Assembly: GCA_014360465.1 (NCBI GenBank)
Contig: JACIXQ010000008.1
Span: 1-46,508, forward strand
Length of the DNA stretch: 46,508 nucleotides
Direction of reading: 5' to 3'
From: a bacterium
GTDB lineage: Bacteria; Armatimonadota; JACIXR01
Shown: in pieces, positions 5,992 to 44,630 of the stretch
How the letters are laid out: every line of letters begins with the position of its first letter
How positions within the stretch are numbered: position 1 is the first letter of the stretch
Position numbers and translations under genes: made by a program
The notes under the pieces: generated by a model
Told to the model about the DNA's origin: nothing
Database searches by the model: none
The model's input: only the letters and a program-made list of their open reading frames with translations

Positions 5992-8900
5992 TTGTCCATC
6001 TCCTCGGAGTTCAGCCTATTGGATGGAATGTGTAGAATAGACGAGATAGTTGAGCACGCCGCACAATTGGATATGCCCGCTTTGGCTATCACAGACCATG
6101 GTGTCCTTTATGGTGTTATTCCCTTTTACCTCAAGTGCAAGGAGGTAGGCATAAAACCCATAATTGGCTGCGAGATGTATGTTGCTCAACGCAAAGCAAC
6201 AGATAGAGAAAGCTTGAAGGACTCATCTCCCTATCATCTCATTCTCCTCGCTAAAAATTTAAAAGGATATAAAAACCTCATTAAATTGGTTTCTTACGCA
6301 AACACTGAAGGTTTCTACTATAAACCGAGGGTTGATAAGGAGCTTCTTGCCAAGCATAGCGAGGGGTTGATAGCCCTTTCCAGCTGTCTTGTCGGGGAGA
6401 TATCTCGCAAGATACTTGAAAATGACTATGAGGGAGCTGAAAAGGCTGCCCTGGAATACAAGGAGATTTTCGGTGAGCGCAATTTCTATCTTGAGCTTCA
6501 GGACCACGGTCTTCCAGAGGAAAAGAAAACGCGAGAGGCATTGATAGAATTAAGCAAACGACTTTCCATTCCCCTTGTGGCAACAAATGATGTCCATTAT
6601 TGCCATAAAAAACAGGCTGATATTCACAATGTTCTGATCTGCATTGGCACAGGAAGCACCGTGAACAAACCGAAAAAAATCGGCTTCGGTACCCCCGAAT
6701 TTTACTTCAAAACTCCCAAGGAGATGAACGAGCTCTTTTACGATGTCCCAGAAGCGATAAACAACACACTTGAAATCGCCGCTAAATGTAATTTAGAACT
6801 CGAGTTAGGAACACCATATCTGCCCTATTTCCAGGTACCCGATGGATATACCTTAGATTTCTATTTGGAGAAAATTTGTTGGGACAATTTCCCCAAACGC
6901 TACCCAAACGGAGATGAAAAAGCAAAGGAACGTTTAAAATACGAGCTTTCAATCATCAAGGAAAAAGGATACTCCGGCTATTTCCTCATCGTTTGGGACA
7001 TAGTCAAAGCGGCCAAAGAAAGAGGTATTCCAGTCGGTCCGGGGAGAGGCTCGGCAGCCGGTAGTATAGTCTCATATGTCCTGGGAATAACCCAGTTAGA
7101 CCCCCTTAAATACGGACTGCTATTTGAGAGATTTCTCAATCCCGAGCGGGTGAGTATGCCCGATATAGATTTGGATTTCTGCGATGTTCGCCGTGAAGAG
7201 GTAATTAGATATGTCATAGATAAATACGGCAAGGATAAAGTAGCGCAAATAATCACTTTCGGAACGATGGCAGCGAGAGCTGCGATAAGGGACGCAGGCA
7301 GGGCTTTAGAAATTCCATTATCAACGGTTGATAGAATAGCTAAGCTCGTTCCTCAAGGCTCAACCATAAACGAGGCAATAGCAAATGATGCAAACTTGAG
7401 AGAATTCTATGAGACAGACGAGCAAATAAGGCGCCTGCTTGATACTGCCCGCGCTTTGGAGGGATTGTCTCGGCATGCAAGCACACACGCCGCGGGGGTT
7501 GTTATCGCTCCTGAACCGTTGGAAGAACTTGTGCCCCTCCAGCGATCCACAGAAGGTTTTGGACTGACAACACAGTTCGACAAAGACGCTTTGGAAAAAG
7601 TCGGTCTTCTCAAAATGGACCTTCTCGGATTAAGAACCCTAACCGTTGTTGAATCCTGCATTGAAAATGTTGCGAAAAGGAAAGGAGAAAAAATAGAGTT
7701 AAATAAAATTCCTTTGAACGATAAAAAAACATATAACTTGCTTTCAAAGGGCGAAACGGTAGGTGTCTTCCAGCTGGAAAGCAGTGGTATGAGGAAACTT
7801 TTACGGGATTCGAAACCCACGAGATTTGACGACCTCATAACCTTGCTCGCCCTTTATCGCCCCGGTCCACTTAGGTCTGGAATGGTGGATGAATTCATTA
7901 GGAATAAAAAAGAGAATACCAAGAACTATCTCCACCCAGTTTTGAAGGAAATCCTCGATGAAACGAGGGGGGTTCTTGTTTTCCAAGAACAGGTTATGCA
8001 GATAGCGGCAAAGCTCGCTGGCTTCACAATGGGACAAGCAGAAACGCTTATGAGGGCGATGAGCAAGAAAAAGGCTGATATGATGAATCAGATGAAACCG
8101 CTTTTCATAGAAGGTGCCCAAAAAAGAGGGGTGAAAAGGGAAGTAGCTGAGGAGATATTCGATCAGATGGCTAACTTCGCTTCCTACGGCTTTAACAAGT
8201 CGCACTCTGCCGTTTATGCGCTCCTCGCCTATCAAACTGCATACCTAAAAGCACATCATCCCCTTGAATATATGTCCGCCCTGCTCACAAGTCATATGGA
8301 GAATAAGGACAAACTTGCCTTCTTCGCTGAGGAATGCCGCGCAATGAACATCAAGCTACTACCCCCTGATATAAACAATAGCGAACTTTATTTCTCTGTT
8401 GAGGAGGATAGCATAAGGGTTCCCTTGACCGCGATAAAAGGAGTCTCTAAGGGGCAGGTTGCTGAGATTATTAAGGAAAGGGAAAGAGGTGGGAAATTCC
8501 GCTCCATCGAAGACTTCTGCATCAGAATGCAAGATGCGAAGCTTACACGTCCTGTACTGGAAGCTCTCATTAAAGCTGGAGCCTTCGACAGTTTAGGATA
8601 TAAACGCCAACAGCTTATGGCAGGCATAACCAATATCCTCAACGCCCTCCAACCAGAAGCAAAAGTTGGACAGTCAAGTCTCTTTGGAGAAAGCGAGGTA
8701 GCACCGCTGACGATAGAACTACCTTCCTGCGAAGAATATGCACAAGACAAGCTCCTGGCGATGGAGAAGGACCTTATCGGTGTATATCTCAGCGATCATC
8801 CTCTTGCCCAAATAAGCGATGCACTGGCAAGATACAATCCTTTGCCATCAACCACTCTTGAGGACTTGGAAGAGGGTCAGTCGGTTTGCCTGGCTGGGAT

Positions 8901-9405: not shown

Positions 9406-10181
9406 AAGTCGCCCATTTGGGAGAAGTAGTGGGGAGAAGCGGAAGGAAAGCACTGTTTAATTTCCTGAGCAATTTTGAAGAGCAGGATTTTTTACTCCTT
9501 AACGCGGAAAATGCCGCCGGTGGTTTCGGTTTGACTCCCCGCGTAGCTGAGGAATTTTTTTCTTGGGGGATAGACTGCCTCACTCTCGGTAATCACGCCT
9601 GGAGCAAAAAGGAAGGCGTGGAAATCATCGCTAATGATCCAAGAATCCTTCGCCCAGCGAACTATCCATCAGGAGTACCGGGGAGGGGAGCGAACATCTT
9701 TAACACGAAAAAAGGGGTCAAAATAGGGGTCATAAATCTTATGGGAAGGATTTTTATGGAGCCATTGGATTCGCCTTTTAGCGTAGGGGAAAGAATAGTT
9801 GAGGAGATGAGAAAGGAAACCCCTATAATCATAGTTGATTTCCATGCTGAGGCAACATCGGAGAAGGAAGCGCTCGCTAATTTCCTTGATGGAAAAGTCT
9901 CCGCTGTCATAGGCACCCATACGCATGTCCAGACAGCCGATGAGCGACTTCTCCCGGGAGGAACCGCCTTCATAACCGATATAGGGATGACTGGTCCGAT
10001 TAATTCAATAATAGGTGTCAAGAAAGAACAGGTCCTCCACAGGTTTCTTCATAGCACCCCAACGAAATTTGAAGTAGCGGAAGGACCTGCCGTTGTTTGC
10101 GTACTCTTTATGGAAATCGACGCTGAGAGCGGTAAAGCTGTTTCCCTAAAAAGAGTGAGGGTGTGCCCTTCAGATGAATAA
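9393..10181 (+). CDS. YmdB-family metallophosphoesterase (2',3'-cyclic-nucleotide phosphodiesterase-like)
   Basis: 262 aa. 'HLGEVVGRSGRKAL...LLNAENAAGGFG...GNHAW' matches the TIGR00282/YmdB pattern. It overlaps the dnaE stop. Confidence 0.6.
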   Translation: MASIKVAHLGEVVGRSGRKALFNFLSNFEEQDFLLLNAENAAGGFGLTPRVAEEFFSWGIDCLTLGNHAWSKKEGVEIIANDPRILRPANYPSGVPGRGANIFNTKKGVKIGVINLMGRIFMEPLDSPFSVGERIVEEMRKETPIIIVDFHAEATSEKEALANFLDGKVSAVIGTHTHVQTADERLLPGGTAFITDIGMTGPINSIIGVKKEQVLHRFLHSTPTKFEVAEGPAVVCVLFMEIDAESGKAVSLKRVRVCPSDE

Positions 10182-10794
10182 TTCAATCCCATTATATCAG
10201 ATCTTCCTCGCTTCTTTCACAGTTGCCTTCGTAGGAGCCGCTAGCCCCGGTCCACTTATGGTTGTGACCATTGCTAAATCATTAAAAGAAGGTATCAAAA
10301 CGCCATTCATAGTTGTGGGAGCACACGCGCTCCTTGAACTTCTAATGCTGTCCATTTTGCTTGTGGCCGCAAATGCAATAAAGGATAATCATTTACTTGT
10401 TTCTTTGATAGGCGTTGTTGGAGGTTTATGTCTTGCCTATTTGGGCTATGGGATGTGGAGAAGCGAAAGCTCGGTGGATGCTGATAATGAGAAACGAGGA
10501 CATTCTTTCGTTCTTGGAGCTGTAGCCACTATGTCAAATCCCTACTGGTTCCTCTGGTGGGCAACAATAGGTTTCACTTTCCTTTTAATGGGATGGCAGA
10601 GAGGGATTCTCGGCGTGCTGGTATTCTATATAGGGCATGAACTTGCAGACCTTGTATGGTATCTACTTGTTGGTGCTCTGACAGTGAGTGGAAAGAAGAA
10701 GTTGGAGAGATACAGTTCTCTAATAACACAAATTGGTGGCATCTTGCTGATTTTCCTCGGTGCCTATTTCTTCGCAAAGGGGCTATTCGGCTGA
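10174..10794 (+). CDS. LysE/RhtB-family amino-acid exporter
   Basis: 206 aa, six predicted TM segments. 'AASPGPLMV' is the LysE-family SPGP signature. Confidence 0.6.
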   Translation: MNNSIPLYQIFLASFTVAFVGAASPGPLMVVTIAKSLKEGIKTPFIVVGAHALLELLMLSILLVAANAIKDNHLLVSLIGVVGGLCLAYLGYGMWRSESSVDADNEKRGHSFVLGAVATMSNPYWFLWWATIGFTFLLMGWQRGILGVLVFYIGHELADLVWYLLVGALTVSGKKKLERYSSLITQIGGILLIFLGAYFFAKGLFG

Positions 10795-10804
10795 TTTATA
10801 AACT

Positions 10805-11125
10805 TCAAATCCGCAAAAAACGAGGATTTAATCTCCATCTTCTTGTTTTGGGTGCTGACCAAGTATCCTTATCAGCATCCTTCCATCCCACTCCTAAAAG
10901 CCATCCCTTCTTCGCAAGATTGCTAATTTGTTTACCTAAATACACATAGGGAGTATATCTTTTCCCACTTCCCCTTCCTCCTTCACACCCATAGCGCTCC
11001 ACCAGCTCCGAAAAATCGTCGCCGTAGCGGGCTCTGAATTCCATAATTATGTCATAGCTTGTTGCTTCTCCCCCCAAATCCCTGATGACATCCAGTATCT
11101 TTGCATACACATCCTCAACTAACAT
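10805..11125 (-). CDS. hypothetical 106-aa protein, last gene of the BMC operon
   Basis: Directly abuts the PduT-like gene (no gap) on the same strand. The basic C-terminus is 'KTRRWRLNPRFLRI'. No recognisable family. Confidence 0.4.
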   Translation of the reverse strand: MLVEDVYAKILDVIRDLGGEATSYDIIMEFRARYGDDFSELVERYGCEGGRGSGKRYTPYVYLGKQISNLAKKGWLLGVGWKDADKDTWSAPKTRRWRLNPRFLRI

Positions 11126-11677
11126 TCACCTCAAAACCCCCCATATATCTGGATGGGGAGAAGCAATTACAGAGGTGCCCACCAAAATGCCCTCTTTGGC
11201 TGCCTGTGCTGCTCCCGCTTCAACCGCTGATGTCACAGCGGAGACCTTGCCTGTCAGGGTGACGAAAGATTTTCCTCCTAAACCCCTCGCTACTCTTATC
11301 TCTATCAGCTGGACATTCGCCGATTTGGCAGCAGCATCCGCAGCCAGGATAGCCGAGGATATAGACCAGGTCTCTATTATCCCTATAGCTTCCCCTATCT
11401 CAAATTCCGTCGTGGCATTGAGGGCAGGGAAGACAGAAGGATGAAGGTTAGCAATTATCATTTTATCAATAACATTATCCTCACCAAAGGCTAAAGCTGA
11501 ATTCAAGGATGTCTCAACTTCTGCCACATCTCCACCGATTACTACGGTGAACTTGCCAGGGCAAAGTGGCGTAGCCACATAAAGGTTGACCTTTGCCGAT
11601 TTTAACATCAAATCCAGCGCCTCAACTCCCCTCGCTATGGAAACGAATTCAATAACTCCTAATGCATTCTGTGTCAT
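11126..11677 (-). CDS. pduT: tandem-BMC-domain shell protein, PduT-like (putative 4Fe-4S pore)
   Basis: 183 aa with two BMC repeats. 'ALGVIEFVSIARGVEALDLMLKSAKVNLYVATPLCPGKFTVVIGGDV' is closely similar to the Salmonella PduT N-terminus, including the cluster-ligating Cys in C-P-G-K-F. Confidence 0.8.
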   Translation of the reverse strand: MTQNALGVIEFVSIARGVEALDLMLKSAKVNLYVATPLCPGKFTVVIGGDVAEVETSLNSALAFGEDNVIDKMIIANLHPSVFPALNATTEFEIGEAIGIIETWSISSAILAADAAAKSANVQLIEIRVARGLGGKSFVTLTGKVSAVTSAVEAGAAQAAKEGILVGTSVIASPHPDIWGVLR

Positions 11678-12699
11678 CTCTCTCCTCCTTCCTGCATAAC
11701 AACAGGTATTGGCTCACCACAATTTGGACAGCGTCCATTCTTTATTTTAATTGAAAGAACCCTGAAAACATAGCGACTGATGAGACACATCCCACAGGAG
11801 GGACAGTATGTGTTCTCATAGCGATGCCCCGGTATATTCCCAATATAAACATATTTTACCCCTTTTCTTTTGGCTTCCCTGTAAGCCCACTCCATCTTTT
11901 CTATATCCGTAGGAGGGGCATGGAAATGATAGGCGGGGAAATAACGAGTAAAATGCAAAGGAACGGATTCTCCAGCGTATTTCAAATGTTGCTCAATCAC
12001 CCAATTGACAGCCTCTTCACTATCATTCACCGAGCTAACCATAAGGGAGACAATTTCAAGATGCATACCGAGTTCACGGGCTATCTTAGCATTTCGCCAG
12101 GGTATGTATGCATCCGCTTTGAGGAATTTCTCGTAACTCTCTGGGACACCCTTGATATCTATTTTTATCGCATCCAACCCCGCTTCTCTCAAACCTTCCA
12201 GAGCTTCAACCGTCATATATCCATTGGACACGATACAGGTATAAAGCATTTCTTTCTTTGCAAGCGGGAAGAGCTCAAAACAGTATTCGTAAAGAAGAGT
12301 TGGCTCGTTGAAGGAAACACAAATGCCCTGGTCCTTGCCTACAGCCATATTTATAACCTCTTGGGGTGAGATGAACCTCGTCTCCTCCACAACCTCTTTT
12401 GAAAGATGCCAGTTCTGACACCAGGGGCAGGGAAAGTTACAAGAATATGTTGAGATAGTTAGAGAAGATGTACCAGGATAAAAATGATAAAAGGGCTTAA
12501 TCTCTATAGGACGCGATTCTATAGCGCTTAGATTTCCATAAGAAAGAGTGAATAGCTCGCCATCTTTATTCACCCTCATCCGGCAGAACCCTCTTTTCCC
12601 CTCCTCTATGAGACAATGCCTTTCACATAGATGGCACTTGATGTTATTCCCCTCCACTCTCTCCCAGAGCAAAGCTCTTTTCATAGCAACTATTATCAT
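11674..12699 (-). CDS. radical SAM enzyme, AmmeMemoRadiSam (AmrS)/PflX-like family
   Basis: 341 aa. N-terminal 'CHLCERHCLIEEGKRGFC' followed by 'IEIKPFYHF...CNFPCPWCQNW' (CxxxCxxC), as in TIGR04337-type enzymes. The C-terminal cluster is 'CPSCGMC...CPNCG'. It overlaps both neighbours by 4 nt. Confidence 0.65.
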   Translation of the reverse strand: MIIVAMKRALLWERVEGNNIKCHLCERHCLIEEGKRGFCRMRVNKDGELFTLSYGNLSAIESRPIEIKPFYHFYPGTSSLTISTYSCNFPCPWCQNWHLSKEVVEETRFISPQEVINMAVGKDQGICVSFNEPTLLYEYCFELFPLAKKEMLYTCIVSNGYMTVEALEGLREAGLDAIKIDIKGVPESYEKFLKADAYIPWRNAKIARELGMHLEIVSLMVSSVNDSEEAVNWVIEQHLKYAGESVPLHFTRYFPAYHFHAPPTDIEKMEWAYREAKRKGVKYVYIGNIPGHRYENTYCPSCGMCLISRYVFRVLSIKIKNGRCPNCGEPIPVVMQEGGER

Positions 12700-14003
12700 T
12701 CTTTTCTAATCCTTATTTCCTGCGAAGTTATAGTGCTGATTACCCCATCTATAGAAGCGTGGATTCTCGCCCCAAGGGCTCCCTCCGGTATCTCTGCTAT
12801 CAAATCCCCTCTTTTCACCTTGTCCCCCACTTTCACAACGGGCTTTGCTGGCGCTCCAGCATGCTGTTTCAAAGGAAGTATCACCTCTTCCGGCTGATAA
12901 TCTACATCGCTTAGAGGTGCTGGAACATCGTAGATAGTGAGTCCGAGGCGAGATATCAGCCTGCTCGTGGGAACCCTTTTGGCGGAAAAGAGGGCTCTGG
13001 TTGAAGAAGGCTTATTTCTGTGAGGGTTGGGAATCTTATGTTCGCTAAGCTTCTGTTTTAGTGCCTGGATTATTCTCCTGGGGGAAAGTCCCATTGGGCA
13101 AGAATAATTCTCGCACAACCCACAATCGCAACAAAGGTAAGCCTCCGTCAATTTATCCTCCTCAGCGAGCCTCCAGGAAAGTACTTTCATTAAAAGGTGG
13201 GGCTCCATAGAATGTCCGAGGAGATAGCGGGGACACAATTCAGTGCATTCCCTGCAGTTACAGCAGGTTGATACTGCCCTACGGAGAACAGCGCTTAAAT
13301 CAGGCGAAAACTTCCCCCACAAAGGATGAGTTTTGGGGAAAACGAGGATACCTTTGGTAGTTTTCTGGATTGGGTAATCAAGCGAGGGGATCAACTTGCC
13401 CGTGTTCGGTCCACCTTCTACGATGAAGAACTCCTCAACGGTTGGACCTCCAGCGAGCTTCAGGGCATCCCTCACAGGAGTCCCAACTGGAAGCTTGAAG
13501 GTGCTTGGCTTCTGAACAGCTCCGCCCACTGTGACATATTTATCAACCACTGGTTGACCATCCATAGCTTTCCCAATGTTTATAACCGTCTCAACATTCA
13601 GGACGACGCAACCAACATCTAAAGGAATTCCACCTTCCGGCACGATTCTCTTGGTTACATCGTAGACAAGTATCTGCTCATCTCCTGCAGGGTAAAAATC
13701 TCCCAATATGAAAATCTCGTGCGGACCGCCGCCCTTCAACGCTTCAACAGCCTGTTTGTATTTTGCCTTCAGCGCAACGATGCCCTTCTTCGCCCTCACA
13801 GCTTCCATCGCCGCCTGCAACCCCCTGAGAAATATGGACTTCTCCCTGGGCAGGATTTGTTGGTCAACCCTCAGGAGCGGCTCGCATTCAGCTCCGTTAA
13901 CTATAAGGAACTCTGCTTGGGATGATAACTTTATATGGGTAGGGAAACCCGCTCCACCAGCTCCAACGATACCAGCTTCCCTTGCAACATCGGATAGCGC
14001 CAT
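12696..14003 (-). CDS. pduS: PduS-like RnfC-family flavin/Fe-S oxidoreductase
   Basis: 435 aa. 'GIVGAGGAGFPTHIKL' is the RnfC/PduS NADH-binding motif. It has two ferredoxin-type clusters, 'CCNCRECTELCP' and 'CCDCGLCENYSCP'. The stop overlaps the AldDH start. Confidence 0.75.
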   Translation of the reverse strand: MALSDVAREAGIVGAGGAGFPTHIKLSSQAEFLIVNGAECEPLLRVDQQILPREKSIFLRGLQAAMEAVRAKKGIVALKAKYKQAVEALKGGGPHEIFILGDFYPAGDEQILVYDVTKRIVPEGGIPLDVGCVVLNVETVINIGKAMDGQPVVDKYVTVGGAVQKPSTFKLPVGTPVRDALKLAGGPTVEEFFIVEGGPNTGKLIPSLDYPIQKTTKGILVFPKTHPLWGKFSPDLSAVLRRAVSTCCNCRECTELCPRYLLGHSMEPHLLMKVLSWRLAEEDKLTEAYLCCDCGLCENYSCPMGLSPRRIIQALKQKLSEHKIPNPHRNKPSSTRALFSAKRVPTSRLISRLGLTIYDVPAPLSDVDYQPEEVILPLKQHAGAPAKPVVKVGDKVKRGDLIAEIPEGALGARIHASIDGVISTITSQEIRIRKE

Positions 14004-15421
14004 CAGAGAATGCCACCGGTTAAAATAAACCTTCTCCTTCTACAGAAATCCCTTGGACGAGTTGGTCCCTCTCCTGTGGAGGCAACCGTCATAGCGAGGT
14101 AGCCTTCACCATCCGTGCCAACCGCTGCTGTGGAAGGTCCGTTGATTATGCAATAATTTGTATGCATCTCCTGGCGGAAACGAAGGATATTGGGTAAACT
14201 GCGAGAATGAAGTATAGATGTATGCTTGAAACCTTGTTCCGCTTTCTGAACAAGTCTCAACCCTTCCTCAAAGTTTCTTACCCGAACAAATGGGAGAACA
14301 GGAAGGAGTTGTTCCTCCATAACAAGTGGATGGTCTGTATCGCTTAGTTCTATAACGATTATCTTGGGTTCCTCTTGCGTTATAATTCCCGCCCGACGGA
14401 GGATTTCACCCGCGTCCAATCCCACCACTTCCCTCTTAATTTTGCCATCAGCAATTATCAGATTGATAATTCTCTCGGCTTCATCTCCTCTTGCTTCATA
14501 GGCTCCTTGCCTTTTCAGCTCGCGCATCAGGTTATCGGCTATGGAATCCACAGCGATGATAACCTTCTCGCCTATACAAAGGATATCATTATCGAAAGAT
14601 GCCCCCTTAATTATATCTGCCGCTGCCTTGGCTATATCAGCGGTCTCATCCACCAAAACCGGTGGATTGCCAGGACCCCCAACGATTGCCTTCTTCCCAC
14701 TTTGAAGAGCTGCTTGACAAACTCCCGGACCTCCTGCCGCCGTTACCATATCGACTTTCGGATGCTTCATCAACTCCTGAACAACTTCAATGGAGCTTTC
14801 GGCAACCGCTGTAACGAGGTTTGGAGGTCCACCCGCTTCCACAATCGCACGATTGATCACCCTTATTGCTTCCTTCGTGCACTCCTTCGCCTGGGGGTGT
14901 GGAGAGATAACAACGGCGTTACCGCCAGCTATCATCAAAATAGCGTGGCTGATAACGAAAGAAGTAGGATTGGTCATAGGGGTTATGGAGAGGATGACAC
15001 CAAAGGGCACATACTCTTGGATAGTAGTACCTTTTGGACCAACGATTATCTCCGGCTCCAGGTCTTCCATTCCAGGGGTTAGGAGGGCAGCTGCCTCGTT
15101 TTTCGCCACCTTGTGTTCCACTTTCCCCATCTTGGTTTCCTCCCTAGCCATCTCGGCAAGGCGACGGGCGTTCTTCAGGGCAGCTTGACGGATAGCTTCT
15201 ATAATCTGCCGCCTCTTATCCAGACCAAGGGCAAGGAGTTTTTTCTGCGCCTCAGCCGCCGCCTCAACAGCCTCATTTGGTGTCTGGAATATTCCATCAT
15301 CCCCTACCCTTGAAACCGGCTGGGCGCTCCTCTGGGAAATAGATGCTTGCCCTTCAAATAGCTCCTTTATAACTCTCTGAACCACTTCCCTTATTCTTTG
15401 CTCATCCAAAGCCATAGGCAA
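14003..15421 (-). CDS. CoA-acylating aldehyde dehydrogenase (PduP/EutE family) with N-terminal encapsulation peptide
   Basis: 472 aa. The amphipathic N-terminal helix is 'EQRIREVVQRVIKELF'. It has an ALDH fold with catalytic Cys in 'DNDILCIGEKV', the BMC-type AldDH family. Confidence 0.8.
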   Translation of the reverse strand: MPMALDEQRIREVVQRVIKELFEGQASISQRSAQPVSRVGDDGIFQTPNEAVEAAAEAQKKLLALGLDKRRQIIEAIRQAALKNARRLAEMAREETKMGKVEHKVAKNEAAALLTPGMEDLEPEIIVGPKGTTIQEYVPFGVILSITPMTNPTSFVISHAILMIAGGNAVVISPHPQAKECTKEAIRVINRAIVEAGGPPNLVTAVAESSIEVVQELMKHPKVDMVTAAGGPGVCQAALQSGKKAIVGGPGNPPVLVDETADIAKAAADIIKGASFDNDILCIGEKVIIAVDSIADNLMRELKRQGAYEARGDEAERIINLIIADGKIKREVVGLDAGEILRRAGIITQEEPKIIVIELSDTDHPLVMEEQLLPVLPFVRVRNFEEGLRLVQKAEQGFKHTSILHSRSLPNILRFRQEMHTNYCIINGPSTAAVGTDGEGYLAMTVASTGEGPTRPRDFCRRRRFILTGGIL

Positions 15422-15432
15422 CTACCTCCTTC

Positions 15433-15702
15433 TTATTTGCCAATATCAATGGAATCTATGATGCCCACTATAGAGGCATCAACTGGCGCCTCCGGGTTAT
15501 CAACCGCCAATCTTGCAGGAGACCCAAGAGCCACAACGACCATCTCACCGATACCAGCTCCAACAGTATCAACAGCAACAAACGGGTCGCCTCTTTGCTT
15601 ACCCTCTGGGGTAAGGGGCTGAACTACAAGGAGTTTGAAACCCTTAAGGTCCTCTTCCTTGCGAGTTGAGACGACCATACCTATTACCTTCGCTATTATC
15701 AA
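15433..15702 (-). CDS. BMC vertex pentamer (BMC-P; EutN/PduN/CcmL family)
   Basis: 89 aa. 'MIIAKVIGMVVSTRKEEDLKGFKLLVVQP...DTVGAGIGEMVVVALGS' is the typical EutN/CcmL fold sequence. Confidence 0.8.
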   Translation of the reverse strand: MIIAKVIGMVVSTRKEEDLKGFKLLVVQPLTPEGKQRGDPFVAVDTVGAGIGEMVVVALGSPARLAVDNPEAPVDASIVGIIDSIDIGK

Positions 15703-16322
15703 TTTCCTTCCTCCTCCTTTATTTGGATTCCTAATCTCTCCGCCAACTCACGTGCCATATCCGTCACGATCGAGCCCTGAGGAATTACCAAAACCTGTAA
15801 TCCCTTCTCTTTGCTCTCCCAGATGTCCTCCTGAGTTATTATCGTGCGTGGAGAAGGAGAGAGTGAGGACGCCGGTTTAGAAGCTTGGGGGGTTCTTATA
15901 CCGAGAGAGAGAATCTTCTCCCAGTGGCTTCTCAGGAGCTCTGCCAGCGCTTGAGGGCATTGGGGAGGAATGGTCAAAGGCTCAACTATTGGGGTTTTAC
16001 CCTGTAGAAGAAGATTCAGAACTGCCTCAAGCGGAGGGGTATCAAATAGTCCAAGGGATATTTTAGCCACATCCGCCCACTTGACATTCACCAGCCAGAT
16101 TTCCTCAAAAGCATCTATCGCCTGGTTTTTACTCCAAATTAAAGGGGATTTTCCCTCCCTTCTCAGCTTATCGAGGAAATCTTGGGGTGGTGAATTGTGG
16201 AGGGATATGACCAGGACCAGCTTTCCCTGGGAAGAAGGGACAGGAGGCGGGACCGCCTCCTGGTTCGTTAAGAGGCGACGAACCTCCGCCTCCACAAGTT
16301 GAACAAGGCGGTCTATATCCAC
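15699..16322 (-). CDS. hypothetical BMC-associated protein with N-terminal encapsulation-peptide-like helix
   Basis: 207 aa. N-terminal 'IDRLVQLVEAEVRRLL' amphipathic helix, then a Pro-rich linker 'PPPVPSSQG'. Its C-terminus, 'VLVIPQGSIVTDMARELAERLGIQI', matches no family that I can assign. It is not PduL (no HxH repeats). Confidence 0.45.
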   Translation of the reverse strand: MDIDRLVQLVEAEVRRLLTNQEAVPPPVPSSQGKLVLVISLHNSPPQDFLDKLRREGKSPLIWSKNQAIDAFEEIWLVNVKWADVAKISLGLFDTPPLEAVLNLLLQGKTPIVEPLTIPPQCPQALAELLRSHWEKILSLGIRTPQASKPASSLSPSPRTIITQEDIWESKEKGLQVLVIPQGSIVTDMARELAERLGIQIKEEEGN

Positions 16323-16363
16323 CCTGGCTTCCTTCCCTTAGTTTTTGATAAGGGAATCTCCTT

Positions 16364-16663
16364 TTATAGCTTGAACTTCTCCAACAGCTTCTCCAGGCTC
16401 TCGTGCGGTCGGGCAATGATGTGGACGGAAATGACCTCTCCTACTTTCTTGGCATTTGCAGCTCCGGCATCAACAGCAGCTCTGACAGCACCTACATCTC
16501 CTCTCACCATAACGGTCACATAAGCTGAACCAACCTTCTCATAGCCCACGAGGACAACATTAGCTGCCTTGACCATTGCATCGGCAGCCTCAATCGCACC
16601 TACAAGTCCTCGGGTTTCAATCATTCCTAATGCTTCCATTCTCACAGCGGGGGCTTCAGCCAC
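16364..16663 (-). CDS. BMC-H hexamer shell protein (PduA/J-like)
   Basis: 99 aa. '[32 protein letters not shown]' is the canonical BMC domain. Confidence 0.85.
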
Positions 16664-16708
16664 CCGAAATCACCTCCTTAAGGATTTTTGAATTGTTTTT
16701 GTATTTTC

Positions 16709-17026
16709 TCATTCTATTTCAAGAAATTTCTGCCTTTCAGAGCCTACGGTTTCCCTACTTTCTATTAGGAAAACGAGGCTCTCCACCGGGCGAGGTATAA
16801 TATGAAATGACACAACTTCACCTACCTTTTTCGCCTCAGCCACTCCAGCTTCCACCGCGGCCTGAACCGCCGCCACATCTCCAGCAAGTTTAATCACGAG
16901 CATCCCACCACCACCTTTCGCGAGCTCATATCCAATTAATCGGACAGAAGCAGCTTTACAAGCCGCATCAGCCGCAGTCAATCCAGCGGTCAAACCCTTA
17001 ACCTCTATCAGACCTATTGACTCCAT
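16709..17026 (-). CDS. BMC-H hexamer shell protein with short C-terminal extension
   Basis: 105 aa. 'IGLIEVKGLTAGLTAADAACKAASVRLIGYE' is a BMC domain. It overlaps the aldolase 3' end by 29 nt. Confidence 0.8.
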   Translation of the reverse strand: MESIGLIEVKGLTAGLTAADAACKAASVRLIGYELAKGGGGMLVIKLAGDVAAVQAAVEAGVAEAKKVGEVVSFHIIPRPVESLVFLIESRETVGSERQKFLEIE

Positions 17027-17768
17027 CCTTGTTCAATTCCTCCAGAACTTTCCTTGTTATCCTATCAACCAGTTTCTGCATATCTATATTTCCCAGAGCA
17101 CAGAGACCACAATCCTCGCAGATAGGATTTGAAGAGACCCTATTGCGGGATTGCAAAAGTTTTAACACCTCTTCAGTAGTAAGAACCCTCTCCCTTCCCA
17201 AGAGGCGAGCAAGTAGCGATATCTTTGCATAATGCTCCAGCGTCTCCATCCGGTAATAAGCCTGAATGGGGCTATCACCAACCGTAAAGGCACCGTGGTT
17301 TTCAAGAAGAACCGCGTTTCTGTTTTTTATATATGGTCTTATTGCCTCAACAAGCTCGGGAGTGCCCGGCGTTCCATAGGGAGAAAGAGGAACTCCGTCA
17401 AGATGAAGAATTGCTTCGGGAAGGATTGGATGTTCAAGGGAAATTCCTGCCACAGCGAAGGCAGTTGCGAAAGGAGGGTGGGCGTGAAGAACAGCTTTCA
17501 CATCGGGACGCTCCTTGTAAATCATCAGATGGACAAATATCTCCGATGATGGCTTCAGATAACCCTCGGTGGCGTTTCCGTCCATATCCACTTTCACTAT
17601 CATATCAGGAGTCATAAACCCCTTTGAGACACCGGTGGGGGTTGTGAGGACAAAATTATCGTCCAACCGGCAAGTGATGTTTCCATCGTTGGCTGCGACG
17701 AAACCCTTCTGCCAGAGCCGTCTGCCAACTTCTATTATTTCTTGTCTTAAAGCGCTTTCCTTTTCCAT
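16998..17768 (-). CDS. class II aldolase (L-fuculose/rhamnulose-1-phosphate aldolase family) with C-terminal Cys motif and encapsulation peptide
   Basis: 256 aa. It has an Aldolase_II fold ('GFVAANDGNITCRL', 'HAHPPFATAFA'). The C-terminal tail 'PICEDCGLCALGNIDMQKLVDRITRKVLEELNK' carries a CxxCxxC triad followed by an amphipathic helix. Confidence 0.8.
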   Translation of the reverse strand: MEKESALRQEIIEVGRRLWQKGFVAANDGNITCRLDDNFVLTTPTGVSKGFMTPDMIVKVDMDGNATEGYLKPSSEIFVHLMIYKERPDVKAVLHAHPPFATAFAVAGISLEHPILPEAILHLDGVPLSPYGTPGTPELVEAIRPYIKNRNAVLLENHGAFTVGDSPIQAYYRMETLEHYAKISLLARLLGRERVLTTEEVLKLLQSRNRVSSNPICEDCGLCALGNIDMQKLVDRITRKVLEELNKDGVNRSDRG

Positions 17769-17785
17769 TGGTTATTTTCGCTATT

Positions 17786-17814
17786 ATTTTACAGAGCTAT
17801 TTCGGCTGTGTCAA
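17786..17814 (-). promoter_or_regulatory. sigma70-type promoter for the BMC operon (minus strand: -35 TTGACA, 17-bp spacer, -10 TAAAAT)
   Basis: The reverse complement of 17786-17814 reads TTGACA-cagccgaaatagctctg-TAAAAT. The -10 element lies about 17 nt upstream of the aldolase ATG. Confidence 0.45.
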
Positions 17815-18080
17815 ATGTTATAATAACACATCTTTTTGTTTGGCGTAAAGAAATATTATCAGTGTTGCTATTTGGACAAGAACGCCTAAAATCTATACCC
17901 TTCCCCCGGTCGTTTTCTATTTGTTTCGTTGTTTTCTTTAACTGCTGGCATTCGCTTTTATTATTGCACGTTTGCTCTCAAGGGAGTATACTTCTTCCGG
18001 AATTGAGGCAAGCATCCTCATTATTTTAGAAATAGCGCAACATTGACTTACAAAATCTTTTTTACTAAACTTTTCATATA

Positions 18081-18109
18081 TTGACAAATGTATTTCCTTG
18101 TCTTATCCT
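18081..18109 (+). promoter_or_regulatory. putative sigma70 promoter for the M28/FtsX operon (-35 TTGACA, 17-bp spacer, -10 TATCCT)
   Basis: Hexamers read directly. Followed by RBS AAGGAAGGG and the ATG at 18154. Confidence 0.3.
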
Positions 18110-18153
18110 AATCTAATGAATAAAATTCTTGGGCAAAAGGAAGGGACCCCGAG

Positions 18154-21100
18154 ATGAAAAAATCGTTACTTATAGTAATGGTTGCTTTCCTGTCTATCTC
18201 TCTTTTGCGAGGACAGGAAAAGGTGAAATTGACCCCCGAATTGCGGAAGCTTTACGGGGAGCTGACCTCAGCTGTAAAGGAGGAAAACATCAGGGATGTA
18301 ATTACGAAGCTTTCCTCCTTCCCAAGCCGCGTCACAGGCTACCCCGGTTGCGATGAAGCAGCAAAATTCGTGAAACAGAGATTTGAAGAGCTGGGTCTCC
18401 AAGATGTCGTTATGGAGGAATTTACAATTCCCACCCCCTATGATAGGGGAGCTACCCTGGAGATTCCCTCCCGCAATATTAAGATGAGGATTTACCCCCT
18501 CTGGCCTAACGCTATAAGGACTCCTTCCCTTCCCCCTGAAGGTGTAAGAGGACCTCTGATCTATGCTGGTGACGGTCATCTCCAATTTTTTGATGGAAAG
18601 AAAGTAGAAGGTTCAATCGCCCTTTTGAAATTCAACTGTGGAGTCCGTTGGTTAAATGCCCCTCGTTTGGGTGTAAAAGTTGTTCTCTTTGAGGAACCCG
18701 ATATAACTATGAGAGGCGAAGCAGAGGCAAAATTCATTTCAATACCCATTGATATAGCTCGCTTCTGGGTTCGCAAGGAAGATGCCCAGGTCTTAAGGAA
18801 GATTATGTCCGAAGACCCATCGGTTGAAGCGATTGTGAAATGCTCCATGCCTTGGGAATTGAAAAAGGGTTACAATGTCATTGGTTTTTTGCCCGGTACG
18901 GATGAGAAATTGAAAAACCAACTGATAATCGTGGAATCATTCTTCGATTCCATCTCCATCGCTCCTTCTCTGGCTCCGGGAGCGGAAAGTGCTTCCGGCA
19001 TCGCCGCTCTCCTGGAAATAGCTCGCATTTTCAAAGAAAGACCACCAAAGAGGTCGGTTCTTTTCATCGCCACTTCCGGGCACTTTGAGGCGCTTAGCGG
19101 GATAAGGGCTTACTTTACAAAGCACTTCAAGGAATATGAAAAGCTCGGTCCTATGGAGAAGATAAAAGGATTCTTTGCACGTGTCTTCCATACCGGATAC
19201 AAGCCGCGAGAGATAAAGAAGGTTTACCTCTTCACGGGATTGGACCTCTCAAGCCAATCACAAGCTATCGGAATATTCTACAAATCTATGTTCTACGAGA
19301 TAAGGGAAGACCGCCAGAGGGATTTCTCCGATATTGCGAGGGTATGTAGAGAGAATGCAGAGAGGGTAGCGGAATTTATGAAGATTAAGCCCGAGCTTAT
19401 TTTCGCTGATGGTATTAATCCAATAGCGGGTAAGCCTTGGAGAACCTTCATTCCTGGAAAAGCCGCCCTTGATGCTGAGCTTTTTACTATGATGGGCGGC
19501 TATGGCGTTTCTTTCTTCACAATAAACGATTCCCGTTCCCTCGTTGATACTCCCTTTGATACAGTTGATAGGATGAACTTCCCCAATCTTATGAGACAGG
19601 TAAAGCTACTTGCTTGCCTATACCATCATATTTTCAATGACCCACCGCGTAAAGGGACGACCACCGCACTTCGCTTCCCGATAACTGAACCATCAAAGAT
19701 AGAACGCTTGGGCTTGATGAACGGGTTCGGCACATTAGCAGGTAGAGTTGTCTATTTCGACCCCAGGAAAAGCTTCATACCGGATGTCCCAATTCCCAAT
19801 TCAATAGTTATCCTCAAACATTGGAATAAGAGTATGATGGGTGTGAGGGGACATATGATAGAGATGACGGACAAAGATGGTAAATTTGAATTCAATGGAG
19901 TAGCTACCATAACGGCAATAGGATGGCGTAGACCGGCAACAGTAAATGCTTATAAATTAGATGATAAAACCGGAGAAATCATCTATGCACCCGACTTAGG
20001 TGCAATGGGTGCGGAGGCTTACCCAGTGGATGCGATGATGACTGTTGGGAAGAAGTATGTGACCGTCGTTGCTTTCCGCTGTGCTTCCCTTTCAATATTT
20101 GACCTCGTTGACCCTCAGGGATTGGCAATCCTTACAAATATTGCCATTCTTGATGGGATAACTGACGGTACACCCAGGATGTATGGACAGGCGATAAGCT
20201 TACCAGAAGCTTGGATGCCTCATGTGGATGACTGCGCCGTTATATTTGCTGAGCCAGGTAGCCGAATTAAGGTTATAATGGGCGCCGGTCCAGCGGCGAT
20301 AAGGTTCCTCCTTCTCCACGCAACTCCGAAAAACCCCAAGGGCGATGGCTATGAGGTTAAAGGTTCAGGGACTCTCTACTTTACCCCTTATAAAGTTGCT
20401 AAGGATATGTGGATCTGGGATGAATACCGTATGTCCAAGCTCCGCCGTTTCCGCATCATAAATGATGTGTTGGAAGACCTTCACAGAAGGGCAAAGGAAG
20501 AATTGGACAGAGCGGAAAAAGAATTAGCTCAACTTAATTATAGTCGGTTTTACGCTCACGCGAGAAGTGCTTGGGGCTATGAGACTAGGGCTTACCCCGT
20601 AGTAAGGAGCACGGGAGATGATGTAGTAAGGGGCGTAATCTTCTATATGGCGATAGTCATTCCATTCGCTTTCTTCCTTGAGAGATTGCTATTCGCCTTT
20701 CCGACTCTCATTCAGCAACTCGCTGGCTTGGGTGGGATATTCCTTGCAACCTTCGTCCTTTTCCGTTACCTCCATCCTGCCTTTGAAATCGCCCTCAACC
20801 CGCTCGTCATCCTCCTTTCCTTCGTGATGCTTGCTATGGCTGGGGCGGTCGCAGCTGTAGTCGTGGGTAAGTTCCAAGAGCAATTGAAACTCCTACATCG
20901 TTCCCTCACTGGTGTTCACAGAGTGGATATCGGTAGGTTCTCAATTGCTGCCTCGGCTCTATCACTTGGCATCTCCAATATGAGACGAAGAAAAGCGAGA
21001 ACAGCGTTGACCTGTATTACCTTGATAGTTCTGACATTTGCCGTGCTTGCTTTCACTTCCGTGAAGCCGGTGATGCGCTTCAATAAGGTACCAGGCAAGG

Positions 21101-22683
21101 GCGTGCCTGCATATCAAGGAGTTATGCTGAGAACTCCTATGTGGAGCGAATTACAGGAGGTTGCCTATAGGTTATTGCACGACGAGTTCACATCCAGGGG
21201 CTATAAAGTATCTCCTCGTATCTGGTTCTACACCTCCGCCTGGGATGAGCAATCCTTCGTTACGCTCGTTTCCGCAGCTAATCCGTCGGACACATATGAT
21301 GTCAAAGCTTTAATGGGGCTCGGACCCGAGGAATCAAGTATAACCAGACCACAAAAAGCGCTAAAAGCAGGGAGATGGATAGAGGCTAAAGATACGAATG
21401 TGTGTATTATTCCCGAAGGAGTGGCGAAGAAGCTGAAGATAAAGGTAACCGATGTTGGCAAAGCCCAAATACTCATCGGTGGAGTGAAATTCACGGTTAT
21501 AGGTATTTTAGATAATAATAAATTCAAGAAAATAAAAGACCTGGATAACGAACCTATCACTCCCGTTGACTTCGTAGCGATGCAGAAACAACAGCAGCAA
21601 GGGCAAACCAGCCAGCAAGCTGGTTTTAGAGAATACATCCATCTTGAACCCGATGCCGTTGCAATCATTCCCTACCAAACCCTACTTAATATGGGCGGGA
21701 CCCTTCGCTCCGTTGCTATTGACCTCGTTTCCGCTGAAGAAGTCAAGAGGGTTCTCGGCGACCTGATGCCTCGCTTAGCTTTAAATATGTACGCAGGTGA
21801 GGGCAACAAAATCTCCCGCTACTCCACCCTGGCAATTTCTGCACCCGTCGGTTGGACAGAGCTTGCTATTATAATCCTCATAGCTGTTCTCATCGTCTTG
21901 GATACGATGTTGGCAGCTGTATATGAAAGGGTCAGGGAGATAAGGATATTCGCTTCGCTGGGCTTAGCTCCTAACCACATTGCTATGCTTTTCTTCGCTG
22001 AAGCATTGGTATACGCCGTCATCGGTGCCATAGCCGGTTACATTGTGGGACAAACGGTCGTGAAAATCTTGATAGCAACCGGAAAGATTGGTCACCTCTA
22101 CCTCAACTTCTCCTCAATGTCCGCTGTTCTTGCCACCTTCGTCGTTGTTGCTGTGACACTTCTCTCTACAATCTACCCCGCAAGAAAAGCTTCCGAGGTT
22201 GCCACCCCGGCACTCGAGAGAACCTGGACATTACCCGAACCAGAAGGTGATGTCTGGAACATTACCCTGCCCTTCTCCGTTACTGGTGAGCAATCCCGCG
22301 GTTTAGCTGGTTTCTTGAAAGAATGGCTTGAAGCTTACGAGGAATATTCGGTAGGTGATTTCGTAACCGCGGATGTTAAAGCTCATACTTTTGTCAAATA
22401 CGATATGAAGGGCTACCAGATTGATTTTATGACCTGGCTCGCACCCTTCGACCTCGGTGTTAGCCAGAGGGTGAGTATGATCATTGACCCAACGACTATC
22501 AAAGATGTTTACGACATAAAGATGGTGATAAAGAGGGAAAGCGGCGATGTTGCCAACTGGAAGAGAGTCAACCGCCGGTTCCTCAATACAATTAGAAAAC
22601 AATTCCTTATCTGGCGCACGATAAGCGTCGCCGATAGGGAAAGGTATGTGAAGATGTCCGAAGAAATAGCCGAACTCGCTTAA
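18154..22683 (+). CDS. giant fusion protein: secreted M28-like peptidase/PA ectodomain + FtsX/MacB-type (ABC3) permease domain + C-terminal cytoplasmic domain of unknown function
   Basis: 1509 aa. Signal peptide, then M28-family signatures ('NVIGFLPG', 'GAESASGIAALLEIARIF', 'LFIATSGHFEALSG') in which canonical Zn/catalytic residues appear substituted. There are multiple TM helices and a typical FtsX motif, 'AAVYERVREIRIFASLGLAP'. The permease module begins at 'MRRRKARTALTCITLIVLTFAVLAFTSV'. Confidence 0.6.
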   Translation: MKKSLLIVMVAFLSISLLRGQEKVKLTPELRKLYGELTSAVKEENIRDVITKLSSFPSRVTGYPGCDEAAKFVKQRFEELGLQDVVMEEFTIPTPYDRGATLEIPSRNIKMRIYPLWPNAIRTPSLPPEGVRGPLIYAGDGHLQFFDGKKVEGSIALLKFNCGVRWLNAPRLGVKVVLFEEPDITMRGEAEAKFISIPIDIARFWVRKEDAQVLRKIMSEDPSVEAIVKCSMPWELKKGYNVIGFLPGTDEKLKNQLIIVESFFDSISIAPSLAPGAESASGIAALLEIARIFKERPPKRSVLFIATSGHFEALSGIRAYFTKHFKEYEKLGPMEKIKGFFARVFHTGYKPREIKKVYLFTGLDLSSQSQAIGIFYKSMFYEIREDRQRDFSDIARVCRENAERVAEFMKIKPELIFADGINPIAGKPWRTFIPGKAALDAELFTMMGGYGVSFFTINDSRSLVDTPFDTVDRMNFPNLMRQVKLLACLYHHIFNDPPRKGTTTALRFPITEPSKIERLGLMNGFGTLAGRVVYFDPRKSFIPDVPIPNSIVILKHWNKSMMGVRGHMIEMTDKDGKFEFNGVATITAIGWRRPATVNAYKLDDKTGEIIYAPDLGAMGAEAYPVDAMMTVGKKYVTVVAFRCASLSIFDLVDPQGLAILTNIAILDGITDGTPRMYGQAISLPEAWMPHVDDCAVIFAEPGSRIKVIMGAGPAAIRFLLLHATPKNPKGDGYEVKGSGTLYFTPYKVAKDMWIWDEYRMSKLRRFRIINDVLEDLHRRAKEELDRAEKELAQLNYSRFYAHARSAWGYETRAYPVVRSTGDDVVRGVIFYMAIVIPFAFFLERLLFAFPTLIQQLAGLGGIFLATFVLFRYLHPAFEIALNPLVILLSFVMLAMAGAVAAVVVGKFQEQLKLLHRSLTGVHRVDIGRFSIAASALSLGISNMRRRKARTALTCITLIVLTFAVLAFTSVKPVMRFNKVPGKGVPAYQGVMLRTPMWSELQEVAYRLLHDEFTSRGYKVSPRIWFYTSAWDEQSFVTLVSAANPSDTYDVKALMGLGPEESSITRPQKALKAGRWIEAKDTNVCIIPEGVAKKLKIKVTDVGKAQILIGGVKFTVIGILDNNKFKKIKDLDNEPITPVDFVAMQKQQQQGQTSQQAGFREYIHLEPDAVAIIPYQTLLNMGGTLRSVAIDLVSAEEVKRVLGDLMPRLALNMYAGEGNKISRYSTLAISAPVGWTELAIIILIAVLIVLDTMLAAVYERVREIRIFASLGLAPNHIAMLFFAEALVYAVIGAIAGYIVGQTVVKILIATGKIGHLYLNFSSMSAVLATFVVVAVTLLSTIYPARKASEVATPALERTWTLPEPEGDVWNITLPFSVTGEQSRGLAGFLKEWLEAYEEYSVGDFVTADVKAHTFVKYDMKGYQIDFMTWLAPFDLGVSQRVSMIIDPTTIKDVYDIKMVIKRESGDVANWKRVNRRFLNTIRKQFLIWRTISVADRERYVKMSEEIAELA

Positions 22684-43898: not shown

Positions 43899-44630
43899 GT
43901 GAAGAGAAATGGCTTCACCCTCATAGAGCTCTTGGTAGTAATAGCTATAATCGCCATCCTTGCAGCGATCCTTTTTCCCGTTTTCAGCAAGGCAAGGGAA
44001 AAAGCGAGGGAGGTTAACTGCACGAGCAATATGCGCCAAGTTGGTTTGGCTCTTAGAATGTATCTTCAGGATTGGGATGAGCGATATCCACCTGCTTCTC
44101 TATGGAAAACCCGTCTTCAACCCTATATGAAAAGCACCGATTTATTCCGTTGCCCCAGCAGACCTCAGTTACCCTGGTATTACGGGCACGGCTATAATAT
44201 CGGATATGCTGGAGTTTATCCACCTGTCTATGGCTTTGTAGAGTTGACATCCATTTTACCCAATGGCATTCCAAATCCAAACGCACCGGGCAGAAGCGAT
44301 GCCTCTATTGTTTCACCTTCAATGAAGATATTCGCTCCAGAATGGGATAGATGCAATTCTGGACCACCAGTTGGTCCGGTAGGGCTTTTTCACGGAGGGG
44401 CAACATCCTACTGGGCTGTCTGCCGTGTGCACAATGGTGGGTCAAATGTTCTTTTCGCTGATGGACATGTTAAATGGATGAGACCAGAACAGTATCATAG
44501 TAGAGCTGACCATATAGATGCTAATGGCATTCCAGTAGATGAAAATGGCAATCCCATAGGTCCCGAGGCTGTAGTTCCGGAAAATATTTGGAGAACCTAT
44601 TGGGACACAAACTACGAACCTGTCCAATGA
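43899..44630 (+). CDS. prepilin-type N-terminal cleavage/methylation domain protein with DUF1559 (H-X9-DG) domain
   Basis: 243 aa, GTG start. '[29 protein letters not shown]' is a class III signal peptide. The C-terminal '[14 protein letters not shown]' is the H-X9-DG motif. Confidence 0.8.

Follow-up and report, generated by a model that had tools for sequence, protein, structure and literature searches.

The window, a stretch of 46,508 nucleotides (nt) from contig JACIXQ010000008.1 (assembly GCA_014360465.1, phylum JACIXR01), carries a ten-gene operon for a bacterial microcompartment (BMC) between positions 10805 and 17814. The ten open reading frames (ORFs) are co-directional on the minus strand at 10805-17768 and lie exactly where an earlier reading of the DNA letters, referred to here as the sequence-only reading, had placed them (Table 1). 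In the 5' to 3' direction they encode a class II aldolase, two BMC-H shell proteins, a protein of 207 amino acids (aa), a BMC-P vertex protein, a CoA-acylating aldehyde dehydrogenase (AldDh), a PduS homologue, a radical S-adenosylmethionine (SAM) enzyme of the AmrS type, a PduT-type shell protein and a 106-aa protein. The operon probably specifies a functional catabolic metabolosome of the class II aldolase kind, in which PduS and PduT would recycle NAD+; the roles of AmrS and of the two accessory proteins are more speculative. Novel here are a canonical AmrS gene that separates pduS from pduT, two accessory proteins restricted to the clade, and the phylum, while the lack of an alcohol dehydrogenase (ADH), the lack of the phosphotransacylase PduL (PTAC) and the single BMC-P are already covered by published work.

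Table 1. Genes and promoter of the microcompartment operon, in the order of transcription (EP, encapsulation peptide)
Feature	Position	Strand	Basis or remark
Sigma-70-type promoter, TTGACA-17 nt-TAAAAT	17786..17814	-	11/12 positions; top site within 10000-18600
Class II (FucA-type) aldolase, 256 aa, signature enzyme	16998..17768	-	PF00596, 8e-54
BMC-H 1, 105 aa, atypical (KAAS and PRPV motifs; C-terminal tail)	16709..17026	-	PF00936, 2e-26
BMC-H 2, 99 aa, canonical (KAAN and ARPH motifs)	16364..16663	-	PF00936, 5e-29
Clade-specific 207-aa protein	15699..16322	-	Just upstream of BMC-P, 4-nt overlap
BMC-P vertex pentamer protein, 89 aa	15433..15702	-	PF03319 (EutN_CcmL), 2e-33
CoA-acylating AldDh, EutE/PduP class, N-terminal EP	14003..15421	-	Aldedh (PF00171); NF011927 (PRK15398), 550 bits, cutoff 403
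PduS homologue (MNdh, metabolosome NADH dehydrogenase), 435 aa	12696..14003	-	PF01512, PF10531, PF13534, PF13375
AmrS-type radical SAM enzyme, also annotated PflX-like	11674..12699	-	Radical_SAM; TIGR04337, 224.5 bits, cutoff 220
PduT-type tandem-domain shell protein, BMC-T(SE)	11126..11677	-	Two PF00936 domains, 3e-44
Clade-specific 106-aa protein	10805..11125	-	Invariably last gene of the block; winged-helix-like

Gene organization and conservation

The ten genes form one transcription unit. Their junctions include overlaps of 29, 4, 1, 4 and 4 nt and one junction of 0 nt, the remaining gaps being 11-45 nt. Related loci define a clade set of 12 contigs, which comprises the window, three metagenome-assembled genomes (MAGs; L001-L003) from an AldDh-seeded scan of species-representative genomes, and L031 and L035-L041, added through protein look-ups and a metagenome scan. 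Both promoter hexamers are kept in six of seven related loci, where the surrounding DNA is otherwise unalignable. In five relatives (L001, L002, L031, L035 and L037) only 7 nt separate the end of the conserved -10 hexamer from the aldolase ATG, which points to a transcript with little or no leader; the corresponding distance in the window is 17 nt (17768-17786), with no Shine-Dalgarno sequence evident on inspection. Rfam and tRNA scans of the window gave no match, and no riboswitch was detected upstream of the operon.

Compared with three relatives, all ten genes have dN values of 0.01-0.45 at saturated dS, which shows that they are real genes and not chance ORFs. A pseudogenised remnant is ruled out by the purifying selection and the intact motifs. 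Pfam and NCBIfam models name eight of the ten products, the 207-aa and 106-aa ORFs being without a family. Coordinates, junctions, family matches and selection bear out the tightly packed minus-strand genes described in the sequence-only reading, as the 11/12 match and the conserved hexamers do its near-consensus promoter. The members of its gene list also stand, but not their order, the unknown protein with an EP actually preceding BMC-P and AldDh.

The comparison of gene order among related genomes that had been suggested as a check shows an identical block on the 12 contigs, except that two or three BMC-H genes are present. The flanks of the block vary, with at least three different downstream contexts and two different upstream contexts; LysE/YmdB/DnaE follow it in some contigs and Cmk/acyltransferase in others, and it is preceded by an M28-FtsX protein in some and by Band_7/GH123 in others. 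Since synonymous sites are saturated and the flanks differ, the block appears to be maintained as a unit by selection. One of these loci, L035, is contig JACIXR010000009.1 of GCA_014360495.1 and also belongs to phylum JACIXR01; its locus tags are of the H5T88 series, those of the window's proteins of the H5T87 series. In the literature this GTDB placeholder phylum was found only in a 2024 nomenclature review, with no account of its biology. The review lists two genomes from the Shengli oilfield, 2.55-2.69 Mb in size and with 44.9-46.0% GC (PMC11382960), and the base composition of the window agrees with this.

Individual relatives have features of their own. In L001, an extra 187-aa ORF (8128-8691, plus strand), absent from the window, lies within the operon among the BMC-H genes. 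A hydrophobic segment lies at its N-terminus, its charged repeats, about five in number, are nearly identical to one another (RRTQELIEEGRRSTQELIEAMERRAEEG), and its Pfam matches are phasin-like and sub-threshold only. In L031 (11575-12551), L035 (15219-16195) and L037 (15066-16042), the last gene of the block, of 104 aa, runs about 34 nt into cmk (cytidylate kinase), which is followed by a gene for an acyltransferase; transcription of the operon may thus extend into housekeeping genes. The end of the operon in the window faces a convergent LysE gene.

Shell proteins and predicted cargo enzymes

The predicted shell set is complete, with two BMC-H proteins, one PduT-type BMC-T protein and one BMC-P protein, and both shell folds (PF00936 and PF03319) are represented. 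Pfam agrees with the sequence-only reading that BMC-P and BMC-T are present once each, and such single copies are ordinary among BMC loci. BMC-H 2 is the canonical member of its pair and is 96-98% identical within the clade, with a dN/dS of about 0.01.

Three proteins are predicted to carry an EP: the aldolase at its C-terminal end, and AldDh and the 207-aa protein at their N-terminal ends. The true start of AldDh is probably the ATG at 15415. Its EP, DEQRIREVVQRVIKELF, is followed by a linker, and the N-terminal amphipathic helix aligns with the EPs of BMC AldDhs. With this peptide and a catalytic-type Cys at position 282, it has the features of the acylating AldDh of a metabolosome.

The putative aldehyde-generating signature enzyme is the class II aldolase, whose metal ligands are intact and whose likely substrate and aldehyde product are suggested by its relatives. 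It has the zinc motif HAH at residues 95-97 and CEDC at residues 217-220. Its C-terminal extension consists of a CxxC pair and an encapsulation-peptide helix, LVDRITRKVLEELNK, which aligns with the EP of the aldolases from GRM5-type loci (44-50% identical). Its best relatives in the PDB, which score about 100 bits, resemble FucA or OtnC. The linker that joins the core to the encapsulation helix contains, at residues 215-222, a pair of conserved Cys residues (NPxCE[DE]C), and Cys-rich linkers are found at the same place in the aldolases of GRM5 loci; this pair may be a metal or redox site. The C-terminal EP of the aldolase and the N-terminal EP of AldDh, both proposed in the sequence-only reading, are confirmed by alignment to proteins of Clostridial GRM5-type loci.

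The PduS/PduT electron module

The PduS homologue has the domains Complex1_51K, SLBB, Fer4_17 and RnfC_N in the order typical of PduS. The NADH/FMN glycine motif GAGGAGF is found at residues 14-20, and tetracysteine motifs are located at residues 247-257 and 291-302. In PduT, the segment CPGKF at residues 39-43 provides the pore Cys for a predicted [4Fe-4S] cluster and fits the published pore motifs C-[PSA]-G-[KRS]-[YF] and CP(G/S)K (PMC6325248, PMC11626177). Judged by these motifs, the cofactor sites of the pair are all intact.

PduS and PduT were renamed MNdh and BMC-T(SE) by Sutter et al. 2024, and bioinformatic, structural-modelling, spectroscopic and electrochemical evidence supports a role of the pair in regenerating NAD+ by electron export (PMC11626177). 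This role agrees with the sequence-only reading, in which the pair was the sole candidate for NAD+ recycling. The arrangement is less surprising than that reading implied, since 361 published loci have the MNdh/BMC-T(SE) pair without an ADH (PMC11626177); EUT2B and EUT2D of the microcompartment catalogue likewise have the pair without an ADH. The window resembles the described module in its four-domain PduS, both tetracysteine motifs, the CPGK pore motif and the presence of AldDh in an ADH-less locus. It differs in one respect. Whereas pduS and pduT are described as consistently adjacent (PMC11626177), here they are separated by a 341-aa radical SAM gene, which is present in every clade contig that covers the position (9 of 12). 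Because adjacency is otherwise the rule, this insertion is the most unusual feature of the locus.

The AmrS gene

The radical SAM gene shares 4 nt with each of its neighbours, at the pduS stop on one side and the pduT start on the other, and its translation is coupled to theirs. These overlaps and a TIGR04337 score above the cutoff (Table 1) support the sequence-only assignment of a PflX/AmrS-type radical SAM enzyme at this position. The protein has the CX3CX2C motif CNFPCPWC at residues 87-94 and three more CxxC pairs. It is 66-77% identical to nine clade homologues and then 52-58% identical to thousands of archaeal and bacterial AmrS proteins, with which it aligns end to end at full length, every Cys motif being conserved. 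No sequence relative was found in the PDB at E<=1e-3.

Although the protein is a typical member of its family by score, identity and Cys motifs, its gene neighbourhood is not typical. TIGR04337 is defined by co-occurrence with AmrA and AmrB, while the gene in the window lies within a microcompartment operon; neither the large ORFs of the window nor the clade loci annotated with Pfam include AMMECR1 (AmrA) or Memo (AmrB). NCBIfam labels the AmmeMemoRadiSam radical SAM family a hypothetical equivalog, and its function appears uncharacterised. A literature search on AmmeMemoRadiSam, or on AMMECR1 with Memo and radical SAM, found no functional study. In the catalogue of Sutter et al. 2021, the only radical-SAM model in the table of hidden Markov models (HMMs) is that of the activase of glycyl radical enzymes (GREs) (PMC8217296).

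In a Deltaproteobacteria MAG (L034:1-3951, JAFDHG010000040.1), two genes lie about 2.3 kb upstream of a non-BMC AmrS gene, one for an IF-2B/MtnA-like isomerase and one for a protein that resembles SAM hydroxide adenosyltransferase (PF01887). These neighbours hint at a link of AmrS to SAM or 5'-deoxyadenosine metabolism.

Genes absent from the locus

The sequence-only reading had noted no PduL, ADH or GRE in the operon or nearby, and none is present in the window or in the 11 related contigs. Among the large ORFs of the 46.5-kb window there is no PduL/PTAC, Fe- or Zn-ADH, GRE, acetate kinase (AckA) or PduV, and tblastn searches for PTAC, ADH, GRE, AckA and PduV gave no match in about 205 kb of clade DNA; the same queries match 12-28 of the outgroup loci, of which 28 have PTAC and ADH. 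The usual cofactor-recycling core of PTAC (PF06130) and ADH is thus missing from the DNA covered. Loci without PTAC are common, examples being SPU2, HO, MIC7 and ACI (PMC8217296), and for SPU it has been suggested that acetyl-CoA leaves across the shell.

Comparison with known microcompartment types

No type in the Sutter 2021 catalogue has the exact gene set of the window, in line with the statement in the sequence-only reading that the locus matches no known BMC type. Its view of the locus as a variant aldolase-based metabolosome is also supported by the domain content, the EPs and the conserved operon. The combination of aldolase and AldDh is less diagnostic than it had supposed in calling it the hallmark of PVM and GRM5, as PF00596 aldolases occur in PVM, PVM-like, GRM5, ACI, HO, MIC3, MIC4, MUF2 and MUF3 (Sutter 2021 Supplementary Data 2, PMC8217296).

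The nearest type by composition is MUF3 of the Clostridia, in which the aldolase and AldDh carry EPs, BMC-P is present once and PduS adjoins PduT. MUF3 loci, which belong to Clostridiales and Thermoanaerobacterales, have PTAC and acetate kinase and no radical SAM gene. The window has neither PTAC nor AckA, and adds AmrS and the 207-aa and 106-aa proteins; it therefore shares with MUF3 the aldolase, AldDh, single BMC-P and PduS/PduT, but not PTAC, AckA or the taxon.

In pattern-seeded AldDh scans, the closest relatives outside the clade are GRM5/PVM-like loci of Firmicutes, apart from a fragment from Poribacteria. Identities between the window and these loci are 44-50% for the aldolase, 38-42% for AldDh, 33-44% for PduS and 40-45% for PduT, and the EP helices are homologous. 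A full GRM5-type locus, the Clostridial L007, has RpiR, AckA, aldolase, AldDh, Zn-ADH, BMC-H, PTAC, BMC-P, PduS, PduT, GRE, the GRE-activating enzyme (GRE-AE) and PduV. Loci of this type differ from the window in having PTAC, Zn-ADH, acetate kinase, GRE with its activase, PduV and at least four BMC-H genes, all of which are absent here. With no match to a GRE (PF02901 and PF01228) in the clade DNA and no cognate activase, the locus falls outside GRM5.

PVM loci resemble the window in having an aldolase as signature enzyme together with AldDh, and their PF02441 flavoprotein PvmL is resembled by the 207-aa protein at the level of fold. They differ in having a BMC-P triplet, PTAC, acetate kinase and lactaldehyde reductase, with MNdh/BMC-T(SE) mostly in satellite loci. 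The type is limited to Planctomycetes and Verrucomicrobia. With a single BMC-P, no PTAC or AckA, and JACIXR01 as its taxon, the window does not belong to PVM.

The Poribacteria fragment (L004:6278-9995, MAG JAJRTO010000015.1) is a mini-locus whose AldDh is 50% identical to that of the window. Its genes are, in order, a 220-aa ORF without a family, aldolase, BMC-H, AldDh, acylphosphatase and then a split PEP-utilising enzyme; an acylphosphatase beside a BMC AldDh is unusual.

Proposed reaction scheme and alternatives

In the scheme proposed for this metabolosome, a ketose-1-phosphate would enter the shell, most likely L-fuculose-1-phosphate or L-rhamnulose-1-phosphate, since the nearest aldolases are found in GRM5-type fucose/rhamnose loci. 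The aldolase would cleave it to dihydroxyacetone phosphate (DHAP) and an aldehyde, probably lactaldehyde, and AldDh would convert the aldehyde, CoA and NAD+ to acyl-CoA and NADH. MNdh would reoxidise NADH in the lumen, and the electrons would exit by way of the [4Fe-4S] cluster of the BMC-T(SE) pore, which would make an ADH unnecessary. Acyl-CoA would move out and CoA in across the shell, or a PTAC would be encoded elsewhere in the genome. Because its ADH-less design fits this mode, the locus would be a natural minimal example of electron-export NAD+ recycling, the minimal set being the aldolase, AldDh, MNdh, BMC-T(SE) and four or five shell genes.

The place of AmrS in this scheme is speculative. 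It would probably take the electron for SAM cleavage from the Fe-S chain of MNdh, either inside the compartment or while bound to the BMC-T(SE) pore, and might act catalytically as a maturase or activase on some target. A role as bulk electron sink is ruled out, because each turnover consumes SAM. PduS was proposed by Ferlez et al. 2019 as an electron feed for encapsulated radical SAM activases (PMC6325248), and this operon would offer a natural example of such a feed. It is a tentative suggestion, drawn from gene order, that the MNdh to BMC-T(SE) chain is physically and functionally wired to AmrS and that aldehyde oxidation powers radical SAM chemistry.

Several observations weigh against this scheme or parts of it. 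The aldolase scores under every NCBIfam equivalog cutoff, its best model being the OtnC decarboxylase (149 vs 250 bits), and the window showed no genes for the catabolism of fucose or rhamnose. Satellite genes for PTAC, ADH or extra BMC-P could still lie beyond the roughly 205 kb of clade DNA. AmrS has no EP-like extension and is otherwise an ordinary member of its family, and three non-BMC loci with homologues of it have unrelated housekeeping contexts; the tie between AmrS and the compartment therefore consists of gene order in a single lineage. In addition, a midpoint potential of +99 mV has been published for a PduT cluster (quoted in PMC6325248), and at so high a value it would be unable to reduce the cluster of a radical SAM enzyme on the opposite side of the shell.

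The same properties of AmrS would be expected if the locus were an ordinary PVM-like or GRM5-derived fucose/rhamnose metabolosome, with PTAC, ADH and possibly GRE in satellites and with AmrS as a housekeeping hitch-hiker. Satellite loci are common in the catalogue (the AldDh of ACI, the aldolase of HO, and MNdh/BMC-T(SE) in satellites in 18 of 20 PVM cases), AmrS is widespread, with 4939 matches at E<1e-20, its non-BMC genes have varied contexts, and the copy in the operon is canonical, full length and without an EP. A hitch-hiker would hardly be expected to keep both its position and its 4-nt overlaps on either side in every covering clade contig, despite saturated dS and changing flanks, between two genes otherwise described as consistently adjacent (PMC11626177), and neither PTAC, ADH nor GRE appears in the roughly 205 kb of clade DNA. 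This alternative is a serious one, if rather unlikely. Far less can be said for AmrS as the activase of a GRE encoded elsewhere, in a dispersed GRM5-type microcompartment with an aldolase and a GRE diol dehydratase. The nearest outgroup loci are of the GRM5 type, with aldolase, AldDh, PduS, PduT, GRE and GRE-AE in one cluster, and the JGI annotation of the clade protein is 'pyruvate formate lyase activating enzyme'. GRE-activase models, however, give only 19-50 bits on the protein against cutoffs of 131-250 (TIGR02494, 19.4 vs 174), whereas the AmrS model is above its cutoff; the identity to the GRM5 activase is 21-24%, as against 52-58% to archaeal AmrS, and tblastn found no GRE in any clade contig. 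These data make a GRE activase highly improbable.

Another aldehyde might be the product of the aldolase, either acetaldehyde from 5-deoxyribulose-1-phosphate or methylthioribulose-1-phosphate (as in the DHAP shunt, which handles by-products of radical SAM enzymes), or glycolaldehyde from a pentulose-1-phosphate; in the acetaldehyde case, the AmrS gene would mark a metabolic link and not an electron-transfer link. The FucA family includes the 5-deoxyribulose-1-phosphate aldolase DrdA, whose structure 6BTD scores 93 bits, compared with 94 for a true FucA, and the aldolase of the window exceeds no equivalog cutoff. Acetaldehyde, the product of the DHAP shunt, is a classic metabolosome intermediate. 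Such a by-product stream would nevertheless be too small for an organelle, no MtnA-, MtnK- or MtnP-like genes were seen in the Pfam lists of the clade loci, and the closest aldolases, at 44-50% identity, are those of GRM5 loci. This possibility is accordingly regarded as improbable, and an aldolase-based metabolosome that recycles NAD+ through MNdh/BMC-T(SE) is preferred.

The operon adds a microcompartment locus type, without a matching catalogue entry, from a candidate phylum whose biology is almost undescribed. The AmrS insertion is a testable candidate both for the electron receiver of the MNdh/BMC-T(SE) chain and for the function of the AmmeMemoRadiSam radical SAM family. If the wiring is true, AmrS would be the first non-GRE radical SAM enzyme of a microcompartment and the first physiological partner named for the chain, and the locus would give the AmmeMemoRadiSam radical SAM family its first functional context. 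The ten-gene operon is compact enough for synthesis and heterologous expression.

The 207-aa and 106-aa proteins

From its N-terminus onwards, the 207-aa protein consists of an EP helix, a Pro-rich linker, an alpha/beta domain, a further linker and a 45-aa C-terminal motif. In its AlphaFold2 (AF2) model (pLDDT 81.6), helix 3-19 is followed by the disordered Pro-rich linker, an arrangement typical of an EP, and the alpha/beta domain has an HFCD-flavoprotein-like fold. The 45-aa C-terminal unit weakly matches the N-terminus of EutQ, the C-terminus of PduM and TIGR02536. All 21 members of the family are inside the clade. In 18 of them, neither PF02441 nor PduM gave a Pfam match at E<=10; the flavoprotein link is therefore one of fold only. 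Flavoproteins of PF02441, for example PvmL, are recurrent BMC accessories (Sutter 2021 catalogue HMMs, PMC8217296). The protein is, speculatively, a PduM- or PvmL-like structural or accessory cargo. Its gene stands just before that of BMC-P, and in the same way pduM precedes pduN. Since PTAC precedes BMC-P in GRM5 loci, a degenerate PduL was also considered and rejected, as the model is alpha/beta Rossmann-like and PF06130 gives no match; the fold of PduL is a beta-barrel.

The 106-aa protein is speculatively a candidate DNA-binding regulator. DNA binding is favoured because the fold is winged-helix-like and because distant relatives have HNH fusions. Its invariant Gly-rich loop raised the idea of a glycyl-radical carrier or a substrate of the radical SAM enzyme, which was rejected because there is no RVxG[FWY]-type motif.

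Other features of the window

Divergent from the operon, a 1509-aa protein (18154-22683, plus strand) combines an M28 peptidase, a MacB periplasmic core and an FtsX permease. It is found at the same place in L001-L003, L031 and L035, but not in L037. Two large ORFs, of 656 aa (22700-24670, plus strand) and 707 aa (27085-29208, minus strand), have no Pfam domain, and the 656-aa ORF is 79-91% conserved in L001-L003. The integrase core (rve) domain of a 411-aa ORF (42368-43603, plus strand) suggests a transposase or mobile element; this ORF lies in a stretch of lower G+C content (about 39-42%). Proteins with DUF1559 and an N-terminal methylation motif are encoded in the window at 43899-44630 (plus strand) and in L031 at 15962-16603. 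Such proteins are typical of Planctomycetes and other PVC-like lineages, a hint that bears on the affinities of phylum JACIXR01.

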